Positions 43,328 through 51,621 of a stretch of 64,000 bases of DNA are shown here, piece after piece (within the stretch, counting starts at the first letter, position 1; every line of letters begins with the position of its first letter). The translations under genes were made by a program, and so were the position numbers. The stretch lies in contig OZ244855.1 of NCBI GenBank assembly GCA_965220975.1, forward strand, positions 1,390,730 to 1,454,729. The letters run 5' to 3'. This DNA comes from Candidatus Poriferihabitans sp. (GTDB lineage: Bacteria; Pseudomonadota; Gammaproteobacteria; Arenicellales; Poriferihabitantaceae). A model generated the notes under the pieces. That model made no database searches. It saw only the letters and a list, made by a program, of their open reading frames with translations, and was not told the DNA's origin.

Positions 43328-43666
43328 CATACCGGTTTAAGATGTGATTGCTCGGTACAATCACAAACTTGTTGTCATTTTATCCTGACAGCTACTGATT
43401 TTCAAACATTATTCATGTCTTTTTTAGGGAATTATATAGTTATTTAGTGCCTGCCAGAAAACCCCTGTTGTTCGCCGACGGCAGGAAAATTTTACTCGGA
43501 AACGGTCTCAGGATGGGACCATTTCGTCTATAAATTCATGAATTGTGCGGCGCACAATATGAATATTGTGCCAAACAGACGGGTTTTTTTCAAGCATAAA
43601 AACCTCCCAGACATAGCTCTCCAGTCCCAGCAAACCGGGAGGCCAAACGGATTTCAATTGGAGCCG

Positions 43667-44968
43667 CTAAGCGGCGAGGCGCAGGCGCTTCTTTTGCTTC
43701 CGGCGAAGCAGTAGACCCATCCGATGAATATTCAGAGTGAGTACCGACAAGGCTACGGTGCGGGCAAAACCATCCGCACCATGAGTACGAACCCGATCCA
43801 AACCCCGGTGCTCCAGATTGTCAATGGCCGATTCAACCGCCGGGTGATGGCGACGCTGAGCCACAAATACCTCTTCGCTCTCCCGTTGCCGGTCAGCCTG
43901 ACCAAGACCCCCTTTCTTCGGCAATCCATTGTAATCGAGCAACTCGTCAAGACGACGGTTGGTGACACTGTGAAAACCCCGATCAAAACTCACCCCACGC
44001 AGTTGTGGATAGGCCCGCTGGGTCGCTTCGACCATCGGCACCGCATAGTCTGCATCCGTACCTTGCCACATCACCTCATGATGCAGGATAAAACCATGCT
44101 GGTCCTCCAGAATACACACCGGAACACCGAACTCGACCGGCGTTCCAGACTTGCCCTTCGAAATCCAGCGAGTGTGAGGCTGGCAGATCGAAAACACCTT
44201 CTCTGACTGCGGGATCTTCTCGCCCTTGAGTAAACGACGGTCAACCAAATCCACATGTAGCCGAGCATAGTACAAATAATAATCGATCACTGCAACACAG
44301 GGTGGACGATCGAATTCCTCAACCAGAATGCGGAGCGTTGACTCCGCACGCTCGATGAATTCCTGACACCGGTTCAAATAGGTTTCAATCGGATCCGGTT
44401 TCGCCTGCGAGGTCTTGCGTACTCGATTGAACAGTTGCTTGACCGACCGGGTCAGGTGAGCTGACTGGTGCCAGCCTTTCAAATCATGGGCCTTGACCGC
44501 CTTCGCGGTCTCGCGAATCAGACCACGAATCGCATCCCGCAGTAGACTGACGTCGGTTGCGTAATGCACATCGGTTTCCACCACAAAGGAATCACAGCGC
44601 CCGAGCAAGGGCACGCCAGACTTTTTTCCAGCCACCTTGTGACCACTGTCTACCACCAGTGGATTGACCTCTGCCAACAGCTCCGGAGTCAGTAGCTCGA
44701 CATTATCGATGATCGTCTGAAGTGCATACTGGTCATGCTTCGAGAGACTGGAATGTCCCAAAAACAGGCGCACTGTCCGGTGTTCATTGATTAACTCAAT
44801 GTAGCCGATCATGGTCGCAACCAAGACCCTGCTTGAGCACTCCCATTACCAGAATCCGCCATGACTCCATGCCCGGACGACCGTTGTTTCGGTCCTTGCC
44901 GGGCAATATGTGCTGGTCCAGCAGGGCAAACAAGGCCTGGCGTGTATTCGGGTCCCGATACAGATGTT
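43667..44968 (-). pseudogene. ISNCY-type DDE transposase, frameshifted and 5'-truncated
   Basis: GRPGMESWRILVMG, CDSFVVETDVHY, SKGKSGTPVEFG, FDRGFHS, VESAIDNLEHRGL. An extra T near 44797 (LH-tga instead of LHEL) shifts the frame; the N-terminus is cut at ~44969 by the duplicated segment. Confidence 0.8.
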
Positions 44969-46034
44969 TAAAAGGCATGACCAAATCAGTAGCAGGTACT
45001 GGGTCAGTCTGAAAGCAGGCAGGTGGGCACGCCCCCGGCCCAACTCCAGAAGCCTCTGCAGGTCGGGTTCTGCGTCAGCGTCTGGCAGCCCTTGCCGCCA
45101 CCGGCCAGGATGCGGATCGCCGGGTTGTAGACCTTGTACTTGTCGAATTCGCGACTGTCGGCGGTTTTATTCAGCGTGAGGTACATCTCACCCCCGCCTC
45201 CGTAGCCGATGTTCTGGCCGGTGCGCTGCCGAACCTCAATCGTGTGCTGGCCTATCAATCCTGTACCCAACGACGCTCTTCCGTTGCTATAGAAGTTCGT
45301 CCATCCCGTTATTGCCCCTCTCCTGTTCCGAAACTCGAAGAATCTGTGGTCGCCCGTGGCCTGCATGTAAAGGGCGCTGAACCCGGTCCACGCATTGCCG
45401 TCATCCTGCTTGGGCGGTATCCGCAGCCGCAGGGTCGCCACCCGCCCCTGATCGCCGCAGCCGGTCAGCACGTTGCGGCCGGGATTGTCCAGCACGATGA
45501 CCGGCTTGTAGTTGTTGTGGGCGCGAACGACCTCGGCTGTGGCCAGGGTGGGCAGTAGTGTCAAGGCCACCAGCACGGTGGCAAGGACCGTCAGGCGGTC
45601 AAGGGGGGGGGGCAATGTCATTAACTTAAGCATTGTTTATCTCCAAATAGTTATCGATTGTAGTAATTATTAAAAGATTGAGATCATTATTATACGAAAA
45701 TGCTCTCGTTTTTCGTAATATTTAGATATTTGGGCATTTTTAACCGCCAAAGCCATACTCAAGGAAACAACAATTCCTAAAGTTAGTGACATTAGGGGGG
45801 CTCACGTGTCGCATGGTAAGGTCACCCGTGTGAATGTCCTGCAGTCTAGAAGCTTGAGCGACTCGAAGGCAAATTCTATTTTCAAACTCAGACACTGCCA
45901 TTTATTTCGTGTCGTGTTCATGTCATAACTGCTATTAAAGAATGCTCAGATAAATGGCATACAGGTATAGCATGCCAACCTGAACATTCAGTTGATTTAG
46001 AGGTGTTTTATTATAGTTCAGCACACCAGTCAAG
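44969..46034. repeat. Segmental duplication, copy 1 (partner 49821-50984)
   Basis: ~45500-46034 is identical to ~50449-50984 except for one G in the G tract; left ends share TAAAAGGCATGACCAAATCAGTAGCAGGTACTGG; the middle is diverged. Confidence 0.95.
45004..45633 (-). CDS. Secreted 4-Cys protein of unknown function, paralogue A (C10 tract, in frame)
   Basis: GGAG RBS 7 nt before ATG; signal peptide ending ATA/EVV; motifs TGCG.QGRVATLRLRIPP and GGKGCQTL.QNPTCRGFW.W.GG.PTC. Confidence 0.8.
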   Translation of the reverse strand: MLKLMTLPPPLDRLTVLATVLVALTLLPTLATAEVVRAHNNYKPVIVLDNPGRNVLTGCGDQGRVATLRLRIPPKQDDGNAWTGFSALYMQATGDHRFFEFRNRRGAITGWTNFYSNGRASLGTGLIGQHTIEVRQRTGQNIGYGGGGEMYLTLNKTADSREFDKYKVYNPAIRILAGGGKGCQTLTQNPTCRGFWSWAGGVPTCLLSD

Positions 46035-46040
46035 CTTAAA

Positions 46041-46279
46041 GAGTTATGGCTGAAAGTAGTGCGCGGGGCTGCCTGAGCCGCGACACCATGCTCGCCATGA
46101 TGTTCAAGCTCGGCCAGTGCGCGGAATCCCGCTGGCGAAGGCTGCGCGGGTTCCGCAGGCTGGGACAGGTCATCGAGGGAGTGCCATTCAAGGACGGAAT
46201 CTAGGTACAATCAGACACGAACACGGTAGCCGCTGGATGAACCCCTTTCCGCCCCGCGCACTACTTTCAACCATAACTC
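46041..46279 (+). mobile_element. 239-bp internally deleted IS256-family element (MITE)
   Basis: 28-bp TIRs (GAGTTATGGCTGAAAGTAGTGCGCGGGG, 1 mismatch); flanks AAGCTTAAA / TAGCTTAAA; 46061-46204 translates to ARGCLSRDTMLAMMFKLGQCAESRWRRLRGF..VIEGVPFKDG*, an IS256-like C-terminus. Confidence 0.85.
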
Positions 46280-46550
46280 TAGCTTAAACCTCAAGCATTT
46301 GAGTTGTACGCATTTTCATCACCAGTACTGAAAAACCGTGACAGTCCCGTTTTTCAGGAGTCTTATCGGCATTGAGATAAAACTCCCGAATAGAAACTTC
46401 ATTCATTGTCATTGAGCGGGTTAGTCTGGACCTGCTTTAAAATCATCGACGGGAATAATCAAATATTCCGTTTCTAATAATCTGGATATGAAACCATCCA
46501 AAGATGCTGACTCATTCTGAAAAGGAAACGAGTGGATAACTCTGAAGAGA

Positions 46551-47855
46551 TCAGTTAAGCGATGAAGATTCGTTGCGAATAGCGGTATCGGCTAGTTGGG
46601 TTGAGTTCTCTACCATCCTGCCCAGATCGAGTATATAGGTACGAAAAGAGGGGATCGGGCACATAAATCGATTCGCTGATATTTTGTGCAAAGCTCCCTG
46701 ATGCACCAAATGAACGAAGAAGGAGTCCACATCCATCCCGGGTGGAAAGCAATAGGTTTCGGGATCAGTCTTATGTAATTCTTTCATCAAATATTTAATT
46801 TGGGAACGACTCTGATTGCAATCCAGTTCTGTCATTACTTTCGTAGTCAGATTGATGGCATCTTCCATCTGATCTGAATATTGATGGTCGTAATACAGAT
46901 CTCTTTTGGTTTTGATTTCGTCGCTTATTTTTTTCCATTCCAGCTTGCCGAGATCGCCTCCGGCTCTTAGAGCTTCTCTACCAAATGCCCGGAGCACAAT
47001 ATGCAGGTGGCGGGGCCAACCATCACAAGGCTCAATCAGTCGATTAACCTCATGCTCAAATCCGACTAGATCAATCCCAAAATGCGCACAGGATTTTGCC
47101 ATGAACTCCTGAGCCTCCGAATCTGGAAAACAACCAATATTGTGTTTCTGCTCAGGAGGTATACGGGTCAAGTCCATCTGATTGGCTGAGTATTCGGTAT
47201 CGCTGAGACCAGCCAACACCAATGCAATCGGCAATCCGCAACCATCGTGTAAACCTTGCAACAGCTTGGAGAGGGGATCGTCCGAATCACGTTTAATCCG
47301 CTGTGCCTCATCAATAGCCAGCACAATCGGCCGGTCAAATCCACCGTGCTGTTTGACCCAGGTCCTAAAAGTATACCAATTTGCGTCCGGCTCCGTACCT
47401 TCAATACCGGTTTCCTTTTTGTGACCGAATCGGAACGGTCCAAATCCAAATCCAGACTTGCTTCCAGTGTTTTTGCTTATCCTTGCCATAAATTCTTGGG
47501 CTTTTGAAGGGTTGATCTTCTCGGCTAGTGGCTTGAGAATATTGACTGGCCCCTTGATTCCGTTGGAATTCAGTGCCACCACCATCGGTGCTTTGCCAAC
47601 ACTCTGCGTATACAACGTCTTAGGATTCTCCTTAATCTCATTCACGATTGAACTCTTGCCCGCCCCGGGTGCACCCTGGATAATACGGGTTGTTTTCGCT
47701 CCCCCATACTGTTCGCTTCCGGTACCTTTCCATACCCGTTTTGTTGCCCGGGCAATGTCGCCTAGGACTTCAGCCCGTCCAACAAACACAGGCGGGGGAT
47801 CACCTTCGTTTAACCCGAGAAAAGACTTCAGTTCTCGTTTTTGATCTTCATTCAT
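46551..47855 (-). CDS. Stand-alone AAA/STAND-like P-loop ATPase
   Basis: PPVFVGR.EVL leader, Walker A QGAPGAGKSS, Walker B LAIDEAQR, helical or possibly winged-helix C-terminus. Confidence 0.8.
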   Translation of the reverse strand: MNEDQKRELKSFLGLNEGDPPPVFVGRAEVLGDIARATKRVWKGTGSEQYGGAKTTRIIQGAPGAGKSSIVNEIKENPKTLYTQSVGKAPMVVALNSNGIKGPVNILKPLAEKINPSKAQEFMARISKNTGSKSGFGFGPFRFGHKKETGIEGTEPDANWYTFRTWVKQHGGFDRPIVLAIDEAQRIKRDSDDPLSKLLQGLHDGCGLPIALVLAGLSDTEYSANQMDLTRIPPEQKHNIGCFPDSEAQEFMAKSCAHFGIDLVGFEHEVNRLIEPCDGWPRHLHIVLRAFGREALRAGGDLGKLEWKKISDEIKTKRDLYYDHQYSDQMEDAINLTTKVMTELDCNQSRSQIKYLMKELHKTDPETYCFPPGMDVDSFFVHLVHQGALHKISANRFMCPIPSFRTYILDLGRMVENSTQLADTAIRNESSSLN

Positions 47856-48738
47856 CGATACTACTCACCGGCTTTTATGCTTTCTCGAAATCATACCTGC
47901 AGGTACAAACCACCAATCGAAGCACATCACCAAAGTCAATGCAAGTGCTGAAGCACTGAACCGTTGGTTAAAACCTCTGTCATATTGTTGTACCAGCATT
48001 GGGTGATTGACTAGTCGATTGTACAACACCTGATAATACTTACCTACACCAGAAACCTGAAAATAGTCGTTTCGATCTCATATGATCGGTTAATTTATTC
48101 CCGTTGTCACAGGTATTACCAGTTTGAATCTATGATCGTATGAATAGCAGCTGAGCGAATCGTCTATCAACTATCCCACTACAGTAAATGGAATGGCTTG
48201 TTCTGTCCAGATCAGCTGAAATTAACACCGCATATTGAATTTTATTTTTGGACGGGTTTGTTCTCAATATAGTTCGTTTCAATAAATCGATAACGTATTC
48301 ACTAGCAATCGATGAATATTGAATCATGTTATCTGTGATTTCTTACTGATTTGATCAAAAAAATGGGAATGAGTGACTTATTAAGTGAATCGTTTCGCGA
48401 TTCGATTTGATTTTTCTGGGTTTCAGTGTTTGCATGTTATTGAGCATACGGACCGGATTGACCACTGTGTTCAGAATATTCTTTTACGGTTTATTTCTCG
48501 ATATTTGAAGTAATAGATACATATGGAGGAACGAAAGAACATCAGTGCAATGGGATAGTGTCCCTATTGCACAGGTGCAGAGTCTAATGACCCTGCATTT
48601 GTAATGGTAACCTCTGATTTAGAGATTACGGATTTGGAATGAAAAATATGAATTAAAAGGGAATTGTACCGAAGGTTTGCAAATCAAGTTTGACAGTAGT
48701 AAAGTTGTGTTTGAGTTATTCTTACGTTCTGTTATCAT

Positions 48739-48807
48739 GCGTGATATGGGATTCGTACTCCCATATCCAAATCAACACTTAACAGAGATAAGGTTGAACC
48801 GCATGAG
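48739..48807 (+). mobile_element. IS200/IS605-family left end with subterminal hairpin
   Basis: GATATGGGA-ttcgtac-TCCCATATC hairpin directly upstream of the tnpB ATG; homologous copy at 56286-56354. Confidence 0.7.
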
Positions 48808-49541
48808 CGATAATATCACATATCGAAACATCACTTACCGCTTGATTTCGGGTTCGGAGTCGAAAGCTCGCAAGCTTGCAGGTCAGACTGGGGCTTGCCG
48901 TTTTATCTGGAATTACTTCTTGGGCGAAAACCGAGATCAAATGAATCAGCATCGAGTATTTCCTGATCATCACCCTAAGCCGCCAACTTCTTTTTTTCGT
49001 TGGGTGTTCAATTTACAAAATTGCGTCTGGAGATCGATAGGCGGAATGACTATTTCTGTTTGATTACTCGATCTGTTTTGAAAGATCAAGCGGACGCGTG
49101 GAAGGCTGGTTTTCAGTCGGGTAAAGGATTTCCAAAGTTCAAGTCCAAACATGGATCTAATCCTTCGTTTGCGATTCCTGAAAAGATCAAGATACAGGAT
49201 GGCAAACTGCACATCCAAAAGATCGGTTGGTTGCGAATCCAAAGAAAAGGTGGCAATCCATATCCTGAGAGTAAGCCGGTCAAGACAACCGTAACCCTGC
49301 AAGCGGGCAAATGGTATGCCGTTGTTTGTTATCCGGTTGAGATACCTGAAAAGATGGATGACGGAGTAACCGCAGGGGTTGATCGAAATGTTAGACAAGT
49401 TGCAGTGGTGGATAGCAACGGCAATGAGCATATACACTACTTGCCCGATCTGGCGAAAAAAGAAGCCAGATTAAAACGATACCAGCGCAGGATGCAAAGG
49501 CAGGTTAAAGGTTCAAACCGCAGATACAAGACGAAACGAAA

Positions 49542-49702
49542 GGGGCTTATATACATTACTTGACACAGGCCAATCTTTCCCACAATCGGGGGCGATATGG
49601 TCAATCAACTGTCTATCGGATCCCACCTTCTGAGACTTTCGTGCTGGTTGAAGCTGTTTAGCCACACGATTTCATCCTTGTCAAGTAATGTATATAAGCT
49701 CC
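49542..49702. mobile_element. 161-bp MITE, IS1595-family-like ends
   Basis: TIR GG(G/A)GCTTATATACATTACTTGACA with a 21-bp perfect core; exact 8-bp TSD AAACGAAA (49534-41 and 49703-10); excision restores the tnpB frame (KTKRK|VQKAHRNI). Confidence 0.9.
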
Positions 49703-49820
49703 AAACGAAAAGTGCAAAAGGCGCATCGAAATATATCCAACATTCGTAGCAACTGGCAACATCAAACCAGCCGTAAGATTGCCGATCAAGCCAGTTTGGT
49801 AGTGCTAGAAGACTTGAACA

Positions 49821-50984
49821 TAAAAGGCATGACCAAATCAGTAGCAGGTACTGGATCAGTTTGAAATTTTCTTTTTGCGGCAAGGTTTCGGGACGGTCGG
49901 CTTGCGGCCCGCTACGACACTGGCGTCACTCCAGCAGGCAGGTGGGGCTTCCCCCACTCCAGTCCCAGAAGCCTCTGCAGGTCGGGTTCTGTTCCAGTGT
50001 CTGGCAGCCCTTGCCGCCAAGAGCGATGAGGCGCATTGCAGGACTGTAGATCTCGTGCTTGTCCTTGTCGCGGTAGTTCAAACTGTCCTTCTCTAGCGTG
50101 AGGTACATTTCGTATCCGTCACCAAAGGTGATGTTCTGACCGCTCTTTGCCCGAATCTCAATCGTGTGCTGATGACCTTTGCGGATGATTGTTTTAGGCA
50201 ACGCTACTCGTCCATTTTCGGGATTGAAGGAATTCCAATCGCTTAAATAGGAGTCGTTTGCTGTTGCTGTTGGTATGCGAACCTCGAATTTTTCGTAGTT
50301 GTTATTGGCTTGTATGAGAAGAATATGGGTCCCACTCCACGCATTCCCGTCACTCTGCGACGGAGGAATCCGCAGCCGCAAGGTCGCCACCCGTCCATGC
50401 TCGCCACACCCCGTCAGCACATTGGGACCGGTATTGACCAGCACGATGACCGGCTTGTAGTTGTTGTGGGCGCGAACGACCTCGGCTGTGGCCAGGGTGG
50501 GCAGTAGTGTCAAGGCCACCAGCACGGTGGCAAGGACCGTCAGGCGGTCAAGGGGGGGGGGGCAATGTCATTAACTTAAGCATTGTTTATCTCCAAATAG
50601 TTATCGATTGTAGTAATTATTAAAAGATTGAGATCATTATTATACGAAAATGCTCTCGTTTTTCGTAATATTTAGATATTTGGGCATTTTTAACCGCCAA
50701 AGCCATACTCAAGGAAACAACAATTCCTAAAGTTAGTGACATTAGGGGGGCTCACGTGTCGCATGGTAAGGTCACCCGTGTGAATGTCCTGCAGTCTAGA
50801 AGCTTGAGCGACTCGAAGGCAAATTCTATTTTCAAACTCAGACACTGCCATTTATTTCGTGTCGTGTTCATGTCATAACTGCTATTAAAGAATGCTCAGA
50901 TAAATGGCATACAGGTATAGCATGCCAACCTGAACATTCAGTTGATTTAGAGGTGTTTTATTATAGTTCAGCACACCAGTCAAG
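49821..50984. repeat. Segmental duplication, copy 2 (partner 44969-46034)
   Basis: See copy 1; the offset changes from 4949 to 4950 across the G tract. Confidence 0.95.
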
Positions 50985-51124
50985 TATTATGACGGAATAA
51001 ATCTGACTGGAATATGACCGGAAATTATTTACTCACCCCCTCAGTAACTAATTTCTGGACGGTTGGTCGGCGTCTCAGACGGTCGCCCTTCGTTGAACCT
51101 TCCCGCCCGTAGTGGTATCCAGTA
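49849..51124. mobile_element. 1276-bp non-autonomous cargo cassette inserted in tnpB
   Basis: Ends are TACTGGAT/ATCCAGTA with GCAGG on both sides (equivalently a 10-bp direct repeat CAGTAGCAGG); removal restores the tnpB frame (KSVAG|TVDNPGKN). Confidence 0.8.
49926..50583 (-). pseudogene. Secreted 4-Cys protein paralogue B, frameshifted in C11 tract (possibly phase-OFF)
   Basis: ATG 50583 gives MLKLMTLPPPP*; removing one C restores a ~218-aa homologue of 45004-45633 with no other lesion. Confidence 0.75.
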
Positions 51125-51621
51125 GCAGGAACGGTTGACAATCCGGGCAAGAATGGAATAGCGAAGTCTGGTTTGAATCGTGAAATAAACGAAACAGGTT
51201 GGTATGGACTGGAACAGAAACTGAATTACAAGGCAGAGGTAGTCAAGATCAACTCGGCCTACACTTCGCAAGCGTGCAGTGCTTGCGGTCATGTCAGCAA
51301 GGAGAATCGAACATCGCAAGCGGTGTTCAGGTGCATGGCCTGTGGCCATGCCGAAAACGCGGAGCTGAACGCGGCCCGCAACATGCTGGCCTCCGGGATT
51401 GGGGCATCTGCACGGGGAGGGGCGTTATCGTTGGATACCCCTTTGATCCGTGAAAAGATATACGCTGTTGGCAACGGTTGATATTGCAAACAACTATATA
51501 ATTCCCCTTTTTTAACCCCTGCAAATCTACCTATTTGCCCATGTCCGAATCGCAATGTTGCATTGCAAGAAAACTCAAGCAATGCCTCTTTTGGGTGAAC
51601 TCCTGTTTTGGACCGTGAACT

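Follow-up and report, generated by a model that had tools for sequence, protein, structure and literature searches.

The window analysed here, a stretch of 64,000 nucleotides from Candidatus Poriferihabitans sp. (assembly GCA_965220975.1, contig OZ244855.1, positions 1,390,730 to 1,454,729 of the forward strand; positions below are those of the window unless the genome is named), contains two paralogous genes for small secreted proteins, W1 and W2, that raise the question of how two genes can share their upstream DNA, signal peptide and first mature residues letter for letter when the middles of the encoded proteins have diverged so far. The original prediction, made from the letters alone, held that a single simple duplication could not account for identical flanks on either side of so divergent a core, and suggested that the promoter and N-terminus had undergone gene conversion or that cores had been exchanged from a larger family. 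Four results support this: a breakpoint test, an approximately unbiased (AU) test, a contrast in synonymous divergence and a W1 body that is nearer to genes of other genomes than to W2. W1 and W2 are a true mosaic and not a diverged duplicate; very probably, they are members of two sub-lineages of a mobile family on which a pattern of selection and a recent 5' recombination have been superimposed. The host genome is a single contig of 3.37 Mb with 47.6% GC, in which tblastn finds two copies of the family only, W1 and W2, both with a complete promoter, leader and start. Their main features are these:

45004-45633, minus strand: W1 gene, encoding a 209-residue secreted precursor with four cysteines, the frame open with a tract of ten C (C10)
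49926-50583, minus strand: W2 gene, paralogue of W1, with ATG at 50583 and stop at 49926
45603-45612, minus strand: poly-C tract of W1, C10, in leader codons 8-11, in frame
50552-50562, minus strand: poly-C tract of W2, C11
45489-46034, minus strand: identical 5' block, W1 copy, 546 nt
50438-50984, minus strand: identical 5' block, W2 copy, 547 nt, one C more

Of the block, 422 nt precede the tract and 114 nt follow it, with the tract in between; in terms of the gene, it takes in the signal peptide, EVVRAHNNYKPVIVL and the 401 nt that lead up to the ATG, as had been predicted; C10 versus C11 is the sole difference between the two copies, and the first mismatches beyond the block are at 45488/50437 and 46035/50985. 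Because identity between the loci elsewhere is 59-79%, a run of 546 nt without a substitution cannot be chance. The block includes approximately 130 nt of unique upstream DNA, of which the genome has no further copy. A terminator-like hairpin (TGGCATGC…GTATGCCA, then TTTAT) is located within it at 45955-45977 and 50905-50927 of the minus strand, in unique AT-rich DNA upstream of the old cassette promoter described below. Both leaders begin ATG CTT AAG TTA ATG ACA TTG and then enter the C run. The W1 frame is translated as MLKLMTLPPPLDRLTVLATVLVALTLLPTLATA|EVVRAHNNYKP, of which the leader is a typical Sec signal peptide that has the cleavage motif AXA (ATA|EVV) and lacks a lipobox; with C11, the W2 frame meets a TGA directly after the tract, and its remainder is open from 50525 to 49926. 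Judged from tract length as read in this assembly, W1 would be ON and W2 would be OFF.

The W1 and W2 proteins are identical over the signal peptide (23/23), 84% identical over the mature N-terminal part (42/50), 43% identical over 79 aligned positions of the core and 70% identical over the C-terminal Cys-rich part; the core also contains about five indels specific to W1 or W2, and its most variable 54 columns are 31% identical, in keeping with the earlier estimate of one-third identity with several indels. Past the block, the two genes agree at 79% of DNA positions for the N-terminal part, at 59% for the core and at 75% for the C-terminal part. Over the 30 codons that follow the tract, the proportion of synonymous differences (pS) is 0, whereas synonymous divergence (dS) reaches 0.79 for the core and 0.53 for the C-terminal part. 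The claim that both Cys-containing ends are highly similar thus holds for the proteins and fails for the C-terminal DNA: the DNA-identical flank is on the 5' side only, and what the 3' sides have in common is a short flank made up of the cassette end and 26 identical bases of a tnpB gene (44969-45014 and 49821-49866). The similarity of the C-terminal parts is the result of purifying selection, not of conversion.

The body of W1 is closer to genes of other genomes than to W2. The N-terminal, core and C-terminal parts of W1 are 90, 81 and 89% identical in DNA sequence to L021 and 91, 82 and 85% identical to L022, both of which are loci in genomes other than the host; the core protein of W1 has 80% identity to the family member P0017 versus 43% to W2, and the core of W2 has 32-45% identity to every other family member. 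In the triplet of W1, W2 and L021, the informative sites to the left of alignment nucleotide 103 favour W1 with W2 by 11:0, and 103 of the 122 sites to the right join W1 to L021 (103:19), with a maximum chi-square of 41 and a permutation p<=0.0002; the breakpoint is unchanged when L022 or L023 is the third sequence. Counted from the tract, it falls close to codon 35, within the KPVIVL|D codons and 144 nt from the ATG, and is equal to the downstream edge of the identical block. The poly-C tract was considered as the joint of recombination and rejected, the breakpoint being 114 nt downstream of it. In trees of codons 37 to the end, a clade of W1 and W2 was recovered in 0 of 200 bootstrap replicates, and the AU test rejected this clade (p=0.018). 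The GC content of the cores (0.45 in W2, 0.57 in W1) weakly hints that the W2 core has been resident for longer, with the limit that cores are less GC-rich than ends in all family members.

The larger family that had been postulated is represented in public data by 19 protein clusters and by 14 loci in eight other metagenome-assembled genomes (MAGs), labelled in their public records as Paracoccaceae, Aestuariivita, Alphaproteobacteria and Arenicellales. Searching 1.8 billion representatives with the family profile brought in only 5-7 further members, which are fragmentary, and the family was found in none of seven congeners, which fits horizontal arrival. The leader and poly-proline stretch are present in only 6 predicted proteins of the 19-protein alignment, most of the others beginning past the tract. 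Among 13 intact genes, nonsynonymous differences (pN) are about as frequent as pS in the core and well below pS in the ends, and in close pairs dN/dS is 1.2-2.6 in the core versus 0.1-0.9 in the flanks. L024 and L025 of the MAG CBDCSE01 differ by roughly 34 substitutions within a core patch of ~170 nt and have flanks that are ~98-99% identical. When three independent close pairs are pooled, the core has 69 nonsynonymous and 10 synonymous changes and the flanks have 30.5 and 17.5 (Fisher p=0.0017 for the contrast, p=0.02 for the excess in the core over neutral expectation). By these measures, the N-terminal ~50 and C-terminal ~45 residues are under purifying selection, and the central ~90 residues, at dN/dS of at least 1, under relaxed to diversifying selection, which makes the core variable whichever members are compared.

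Mosaicism recurs in the family. In the MAG CBDCSE01, L026 is joined to L024 of the same MAG by its 5' sites (22:1) and then to L021 by its body (58:15; p<=0.0003), and L022/L028 and L031/L021 give similar signals. A tree of the 5' region unites the CBDCSE01 copies with 98/100 support, and a tree of the body does not. In all, homogenisation of the 5' region is seen in three genomes besides the host. The frame around the core is conserved because of purifying selection together with recurrent homogenisation.

No Pfam match to the W1 and W2 proteins was found by hmmscan, and Calx-beta (PF03160) was not matched even at E<=1. The AlphaFold2 model, built from the 19-sequence alignment, is an all-beta sandwich with a mean pLDDT (predicted local distance difference test) of 69, with values of 80-93 for the strands of the core and a poor model of the Cys-rich tail. 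The structures retrieved by Foldseek are generic Ig-like sandwiches only, with template modelling (TM) scores of 0.3-0.38 (pilus chaperones and subunits, PAD N-terminal domains), and Calx-beta is absent from the top 50 hits of this query model of mean pLDDT 69. The family profile has weak matches to giant Ig-like-repeat proteins, mostly with Y_Y_Y, PKD or Big domains and one with Calx-beta. An Ig-like beta-sandwich is a reasonable assignment on this model; of the loose parallel to Calx-beta and Ig-like folds that was drawn at first, the generic Ig-like likeness survives, and Calx-beta membership is not supported. Four conserved cysteines (C59, C183, C191 and C205 of the precursor) suggest that two disulfides are formed in the conserved frame.

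Comparison with homologous cassettes separates the 5' module into an older promoter and leader and an inserted miniature inverted-repeat transposable element (MITE):

45613-45793, minus strand: MITE in the W1 5' module, 181 nt, with terminal inverted repeats AATGTCAYTAACTT.AG, in the ancestral poly-C tract
50563-50743, minus strand: MITE in the W2 5' module, the same element as in W1
45794-45814, minus strand: stranded ancestral leader ATGCGACACGTGAGCCCCCCT (MRHVSPP), as in P0018, L022, L023, L032 and L033
45815-45899, minus strand: ancestral cassette promoter and degenerate left terminal repeat (GGCAGTGTCTGAGTTTGAAAATAGAATTTGCCTTCG...TAGACT), kept in homologous cassettes of other genomes
46040-46280, no strand assigned: MITE derived from the insertion sequence (IS) IS256, at least 100 copies, 5 nt past the upstream end of the W1 block

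Homologues elsewhere possess a conserved cassette promoter (…TTTGAAAATAGAATTTGCCTTCG…GCTAGACT…) and a leader of the form ATG CGA CAC GTG/TTG A.. poly-C (MRHV/L…PPPP), and the same promoter and leader are found in the window at 45794-45899. The MITE is placed directly after six C's and a T, and its other end abuts the present poly-C tract; this far end reads GGAGATAAACA followed by the seven codons with which the W1 and W2 leaders begin, and thus the element brings a ribosome-binding site, an ATG and the seven-codon leader MLKLMTL. The element has 19 matches in the host genome and approximately 30 relatives there, at least seven of which are likewise inside leader poly-C tracts (for example, at genome positions 837331-837510, 1806517, 3271681 and 3355095). 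Evidently, the MITE inserts into C-runs, where it would supply a new ribosome-binding site, start and leader. Members of this MITE family, among them those at genome positions 837344-837494, 1806387-1806537, 3271661-3271813 and 3354963-3355115, are 151-181 nt long with terminal repeats CAATG[TG]CATT[AC]ACTTAAG and have C runs left on both sides; a sister subfamily (AATGGCATTCACTTAAG) inserts elsewhere and is flanked by direct repeats of up to ~11 bp. The MITE is also present in two Arenicellales-labelled MAGs, one of which belongs to the order of the host genome, and in none of six other MAGs searched, including those with the nearest relatives of W1; no foreign homologue carries the W1/W2 version of the 5' block. 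Since the MITE is limited, among the genomes searched, to the host genome and these two MAGs, the 5' module is probably a local construction, and the W1 chimera would have been built in this lineage. The IS256-derived MITE next to the W1 block has 30-nt inverted arms and a remnant of the C-terminus of the IS256 transposase, and its copies are 94-98% identical.

Both genes are borne by cassettes of IS1 type, the junctions of which are as follows:

44995-45014, plus strand: W1 right terminal repeat (GGTACTGGGTCAGTCTGAAA), identical to that of L032
49847-49866, plus strand: W2 right terminal repeat (GGTACTGGATCAGTTTGAAA), separated from the gene by a 58-nt 3' untranslated region (UTR)
44969-44994, plus strand: tnpB-derived flank of W1, 26 nt, identical to the W2 flank
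49847-51119, minus strand: W2 cassette, 1273 nt, in an IS605-family tnpB, with the 8-nt repeat CAGTAGCA at 49839-49846 and 51120-51127
49000-49846, plus strand: N-terminal part of the interrupted tnpB (OrfB_IS605)
51128-51481, plus strand: C-terminal part of the interrupted tnpB (Cas12f1-like TNB domain)

In L022, L023 and L032, the gene, its promoter and terminal inverted repeats of ~20 nt (AGTAGTGGTTCAGTTTGAAA … TTYCARACTGAYCCAGYACC) form a unit of 696-794 nt that is bounded by 8-bp target duplications; W2 is bracketed by the 8-nt CAGTAGCA, and no target-site duplication was found at W1. The left terminal repeat of both W1 and W2 is degenerate (GGCAGTGTCTGAGTTTGAAA), and the outer 5' end of the W2 cassette (51119) is atypical, in that it resembles the terminal repeat in flipped or direct orientation, not in inverted orientation. 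The sole substantial open reading frame (ORF) of each cassette is the secreted-protein gene, and there is no transposase inside. Approximately 97 ends of the form GGTAGTGGCTCAGTTTGAAA in the genome correspond to roughly 45 one-gene cassettes, for which a 2.7-kb element with cassette-type ends and an IS1-family transposase (DDE_Tnp_IS1) at genome positions 2450962-2453670 (L039) is the likely autonomous partner. This element also has a 9-bp target duplication and a 393-aa DNA methyltransferase-like passenger.

The two cassettes end differently: the 3' end of W1 is a short variant, common to L022 and L032, in which the ORF enters the terminal repeat (CLLSD*), and that of W2 is a long variant with the 58-nt 3' UTR, common to L023, L028 and L029. 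In W1, the segment of foreign type thus starts about 35 codons past the tract and reaches almost to the end of the cassette, to within 8 nt of it. The 26-nt flank has variants (TAAAAGG and CAGTAGCA) that are in no other tnpB copy examined in the genome; because these are unique to one IS copy, the W1 and W2 loci are probably copies of one insertion junction and not independent insertions. Independent insertion of W1 and W2 at one tnpB site was considered and rejected, the flank variants being specific to one copy and target duplications elsewhere having no site preference. Next to W1, window positions 43500-44348 are 99.8% identical over 849 nt to genome positions 646448-647296, a second site that is also near MITE and poly-C loci; the stretch covers part of a DDE transposase-like gene (43667-44824) without a Pfam match. 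The apparent start codon of this gene is inside the 26-nt tnpB fragment by W1, because of which the locus would be a rearrangement junction and not a clean insertion.

The history proposed for W1 and W2 begins with a family of ~190-aa secreted, four-cysteine, Ig-like proteins, carried on transposase-less IS1-type cassettes and gated by poly-C in the leader. One insertion junction would have been duplicated first, after which one copy would have had its body, beginning at about codon 35 past the tract and including the sequence up to the right terminal repeat, replaced by the body of a different family member; it is equivalent to say that an incoming cassette would have been converted at both edges. 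Recent recombination within the genome, with a crossover in the conserved N-terminal coding region, gave both genes one 546-nt 5' module consisting of AT-rich upstream DNA, the old promoter, the stranded leader, the MITE, poly-C, the signal peptide and the first 15 mature residues. Because of its likeness to genes of MAGs labelled Paracoccaceae, the W1 body is probably the newcomer, and the MITE-bearing 5' module would be the resident part. The outcome would be two antigenically or functionally distinct secreted proteins with the same promoter and slippage switch. A more tentative extension is that the constant parts of the cassette (promoter, leader, poly-C, signal peptide, first ~50 mature residues, C-terminal Cys module and right terminal repeat) may serve as a recombination handle, by which alpha- and gammaproteobacteria of one habitat might share a pool of hypervariable cores, new arrivals among which are re-fitted behind a resident, locally tuned switch.

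Several points weigh against this history. The tract lengths C10 and C11, like both loci, are as read in this assembly, and homopolymer lengths in long reads are error-prone; consensus polishing could also have removed a few real differences in the block. The evidence of positive selection in the core is modest, in that dN/dS near 1 also fits relaxed constraint and single close pairs are mostly non-significant. The upstream end of the W1 block coincides with the IS256-derived MITE, beyond which there is no resumed homology to the W2 locus from which the first reach of the event, or its direction, could be read. The right terminal repeat of W1 is that of L032 and differs from that of W2 at 2 of 20 bases, yet the flank outside it is that of W2, and only ~8 bases of homology precede this W2-identical flank; simple homologous recombination with two crossovers fails to account for the 3' junction of W1. 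A possible route to this junction is insertion of a new cassette beside the resident terminal repeat, repeat-targeted insertion being known for some IS families, and subsequent deletion between the two conserved N-terminal coding regions, after which the 5' module of the resident cassette would stand in front of the incoming body, with the original flank still in place.

Of the other explanations, the one that survives best, improbable as it is, is programmed antigenic variation of the pilE/pilS, vlsE or msp2 type, in which silent donors would be copied into an expression site. Conserved ends around a variable core, mosaicism in several genomes and the predicted phase variability of the genes are all compatible with it, but only two copies exist, each is complete in promoter, leader and start, no promoterless partial copies are present, and a block with zero substitutions points to one recent event rather than continuous shuffling. 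With two copies that both have complete promoters and starts, W1 and W2 are not a system of expression site and silent cassettes. Somewhat less credible again is the separate arrival of two cassettes with the same conserved "vector" 5' end and no recombination in this genome. The low family-wide pS of the 5' region (0.13-0.34), the 82-95% identity of signal-peptide DNA among most genomes and the clear mobility of cassettes between alpha- and gammaproteobacterial MAGs would permit it, but genomes that hold relatives of W1 lack the MITE of the block, no foreign homologue has this 5' block with its ~130 nt of unique upstream DNA, both loci share the flank of one tnpB copy, and target duplications elsewhere show no site specificity.

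There is even less reason to regard the identity as an artefact of assembly or polishing, such as a collapsed repeat or mis-mapped reads. The genome is repeat-rich, but it is assembled as one 3.37-Mb contig in which the bodies and outer flanks of W1 and W2 differ, 546 nt is short relative to long reads, the blocks stop sharply within the coding region and give way to a graded zone of 77-87% identity, polishing cannot make 546 identical bases from ~80% identity, and the mosaic pattern is repeated in independent assemblies. The least probable explanation, recent tandem or segmental duplication in which the core alone diverged fast by hypermutation or positive selection with no second lineage, could appeal to the dN/dS of at least 1 in the cores of close pairs and to recent paralogues elsewhere that differ nearly only by nonsynonymous core changes (the near-identical L028 and L029 of OZ244915, with 10 nonsynonymous and 0 synonymous differences and one indel), but is excluded because of the breakpoint and tree tests, including the AU rejection of a W1 and W2 clade, the contrast between dS of 0.79 and 0.53 outside the block and 0 within it, and a W1 body 81-91% identical to foreign genes, and is further opposed by 3' UTR and terminal-repeat variants that are each common to different foreign cassettes and by the lack of a third near-copy in the genome as template repeat for a diversity-generating retroelement. 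The core as target of such a retroelement was itself rejected, given that no third core copy exists in the genome and that the core differences include indels; reverse transcriptase was not searched for.

W1 and W2 are one instance of a much larger repertoire of genes with C/G tracts. Counting homopolymers from 8 nt upward, the genome contains 149 of C or G, with lengths that peak at 11-12 and reach 17 at most, and 158 of A or T. Of the C/G tracts, 89 are situated 9-48 nt after an ATG with a ribosome-binding site, mostly in signal-peptide coding regions, and the same types of promoter and leader are combined at such tracts with differing signal peptides and bodies. Upstream of W1 is a gene for a 434-aa AAA_16/AAA_22 ATPase (46551-47855, minus strand) that has 32 full-length paralogues in the genome with 61-80% amino acid identity; these are nearer to poly-C/G tracts than random (median distance 3.0 kb versus 7.9 kb), 12 of them being within 1.5 kb of one. 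Related ATPase genes adjoin family members in other genomes (33% identity at L030, 28% at L041).

If the proposed history is correct, a strategy described for contingency loci of pathogens, in which conserved ends enclose a variable middle, slippage acts as a switch and gene conversion carries this switch from one paralogue to another, would also operate in an uncultured, probably sponge-associated gammaproteobacterium. Mobile elements (an IS1-type cassette, a start-making MITE and an IS605 target) and homologous recombination would jointly assemble new switchable genes, and the core of ~90 residues would be a likely interaction surface of the Ig-like secreted protein. If cores are indeed swapped, symbiont communities may draw on one library of variants, either secreted or at the surface. 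Searches of the literature for homopolymer-based phase variation in sponge symbionts found nothing.

The nearest parallel is with babA, babB and babC of Helicobacter pylori, which are nearly identical at both ends, differ in the middle and have a CT repeat on the 5' side that sets the frame, and in which intragenomic gene conversion ~60-240 bp from the start codon produces chimeras with another body behind the phase-variable 5' end (PMC4552749). Like bab, W1 and W2 have a slippery repeat in the 5' coding region, and the chimera has its breakpoint 144 nt from the ATG. The Bab proteins, however, are large outer-membrane adhesins encoded at fixed chromosomal loci with CT dinucleotide repeats, whereas W1 and W2 are soluble secreted Ig-like domains of ~175 aa with a C homopolymer, IS1-type cassettes and a MITE-borne start. 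The opa genes of Neisseria likewise occupy multiple loci, each copy being independently phase-variable through a 5' coding repeat, and have a framework with recombined semivariable and hypervariable regions (PMC13183285). Opa proteins are beta-barrels of the outer membrane encoded at ~11 loci per genome without transposable cassettes, unlike the two loci and one variable core of the family in this genome. W1 and W2 have no homology to Bab or Opa (no Pfam match; an Ig-like model, not a beta-barrel), and because there is no sequence homology, the relation is one of analogy only.

As carriers, the W1 and W2 cassettes are comparable to mobile insertion cassettes, of which MIC231 of Bacillus cereus is an example and which are short elements with the terminal repeats of an autonomous IS, a passenger gene and target duplications, have no transposase and are mobilised in trans; they too have IS-type terminal repeats and a passenger gene without a transposase. 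Mobile insertion cassettes are not known to carry genes for phase-variable secreted proteins or to undergo recurrent homogenisation of one end between copies. In pilC1 and pilC2 of Neisseria, each of two paralogues is switched by a poly-G tract in the signal-peptide coding region, as far as which the likeness to W1 and W2 extends, but the pair has neither a mosaic 5' module nor a mobile cassette, and PilC is large and pilus-associated. What is new relative to bab and opa is the transposase-less IS1-type carrier that crosses between bacterial classes, the start made by a MITE in a homopolymer, the type of protein and the ecological setting.

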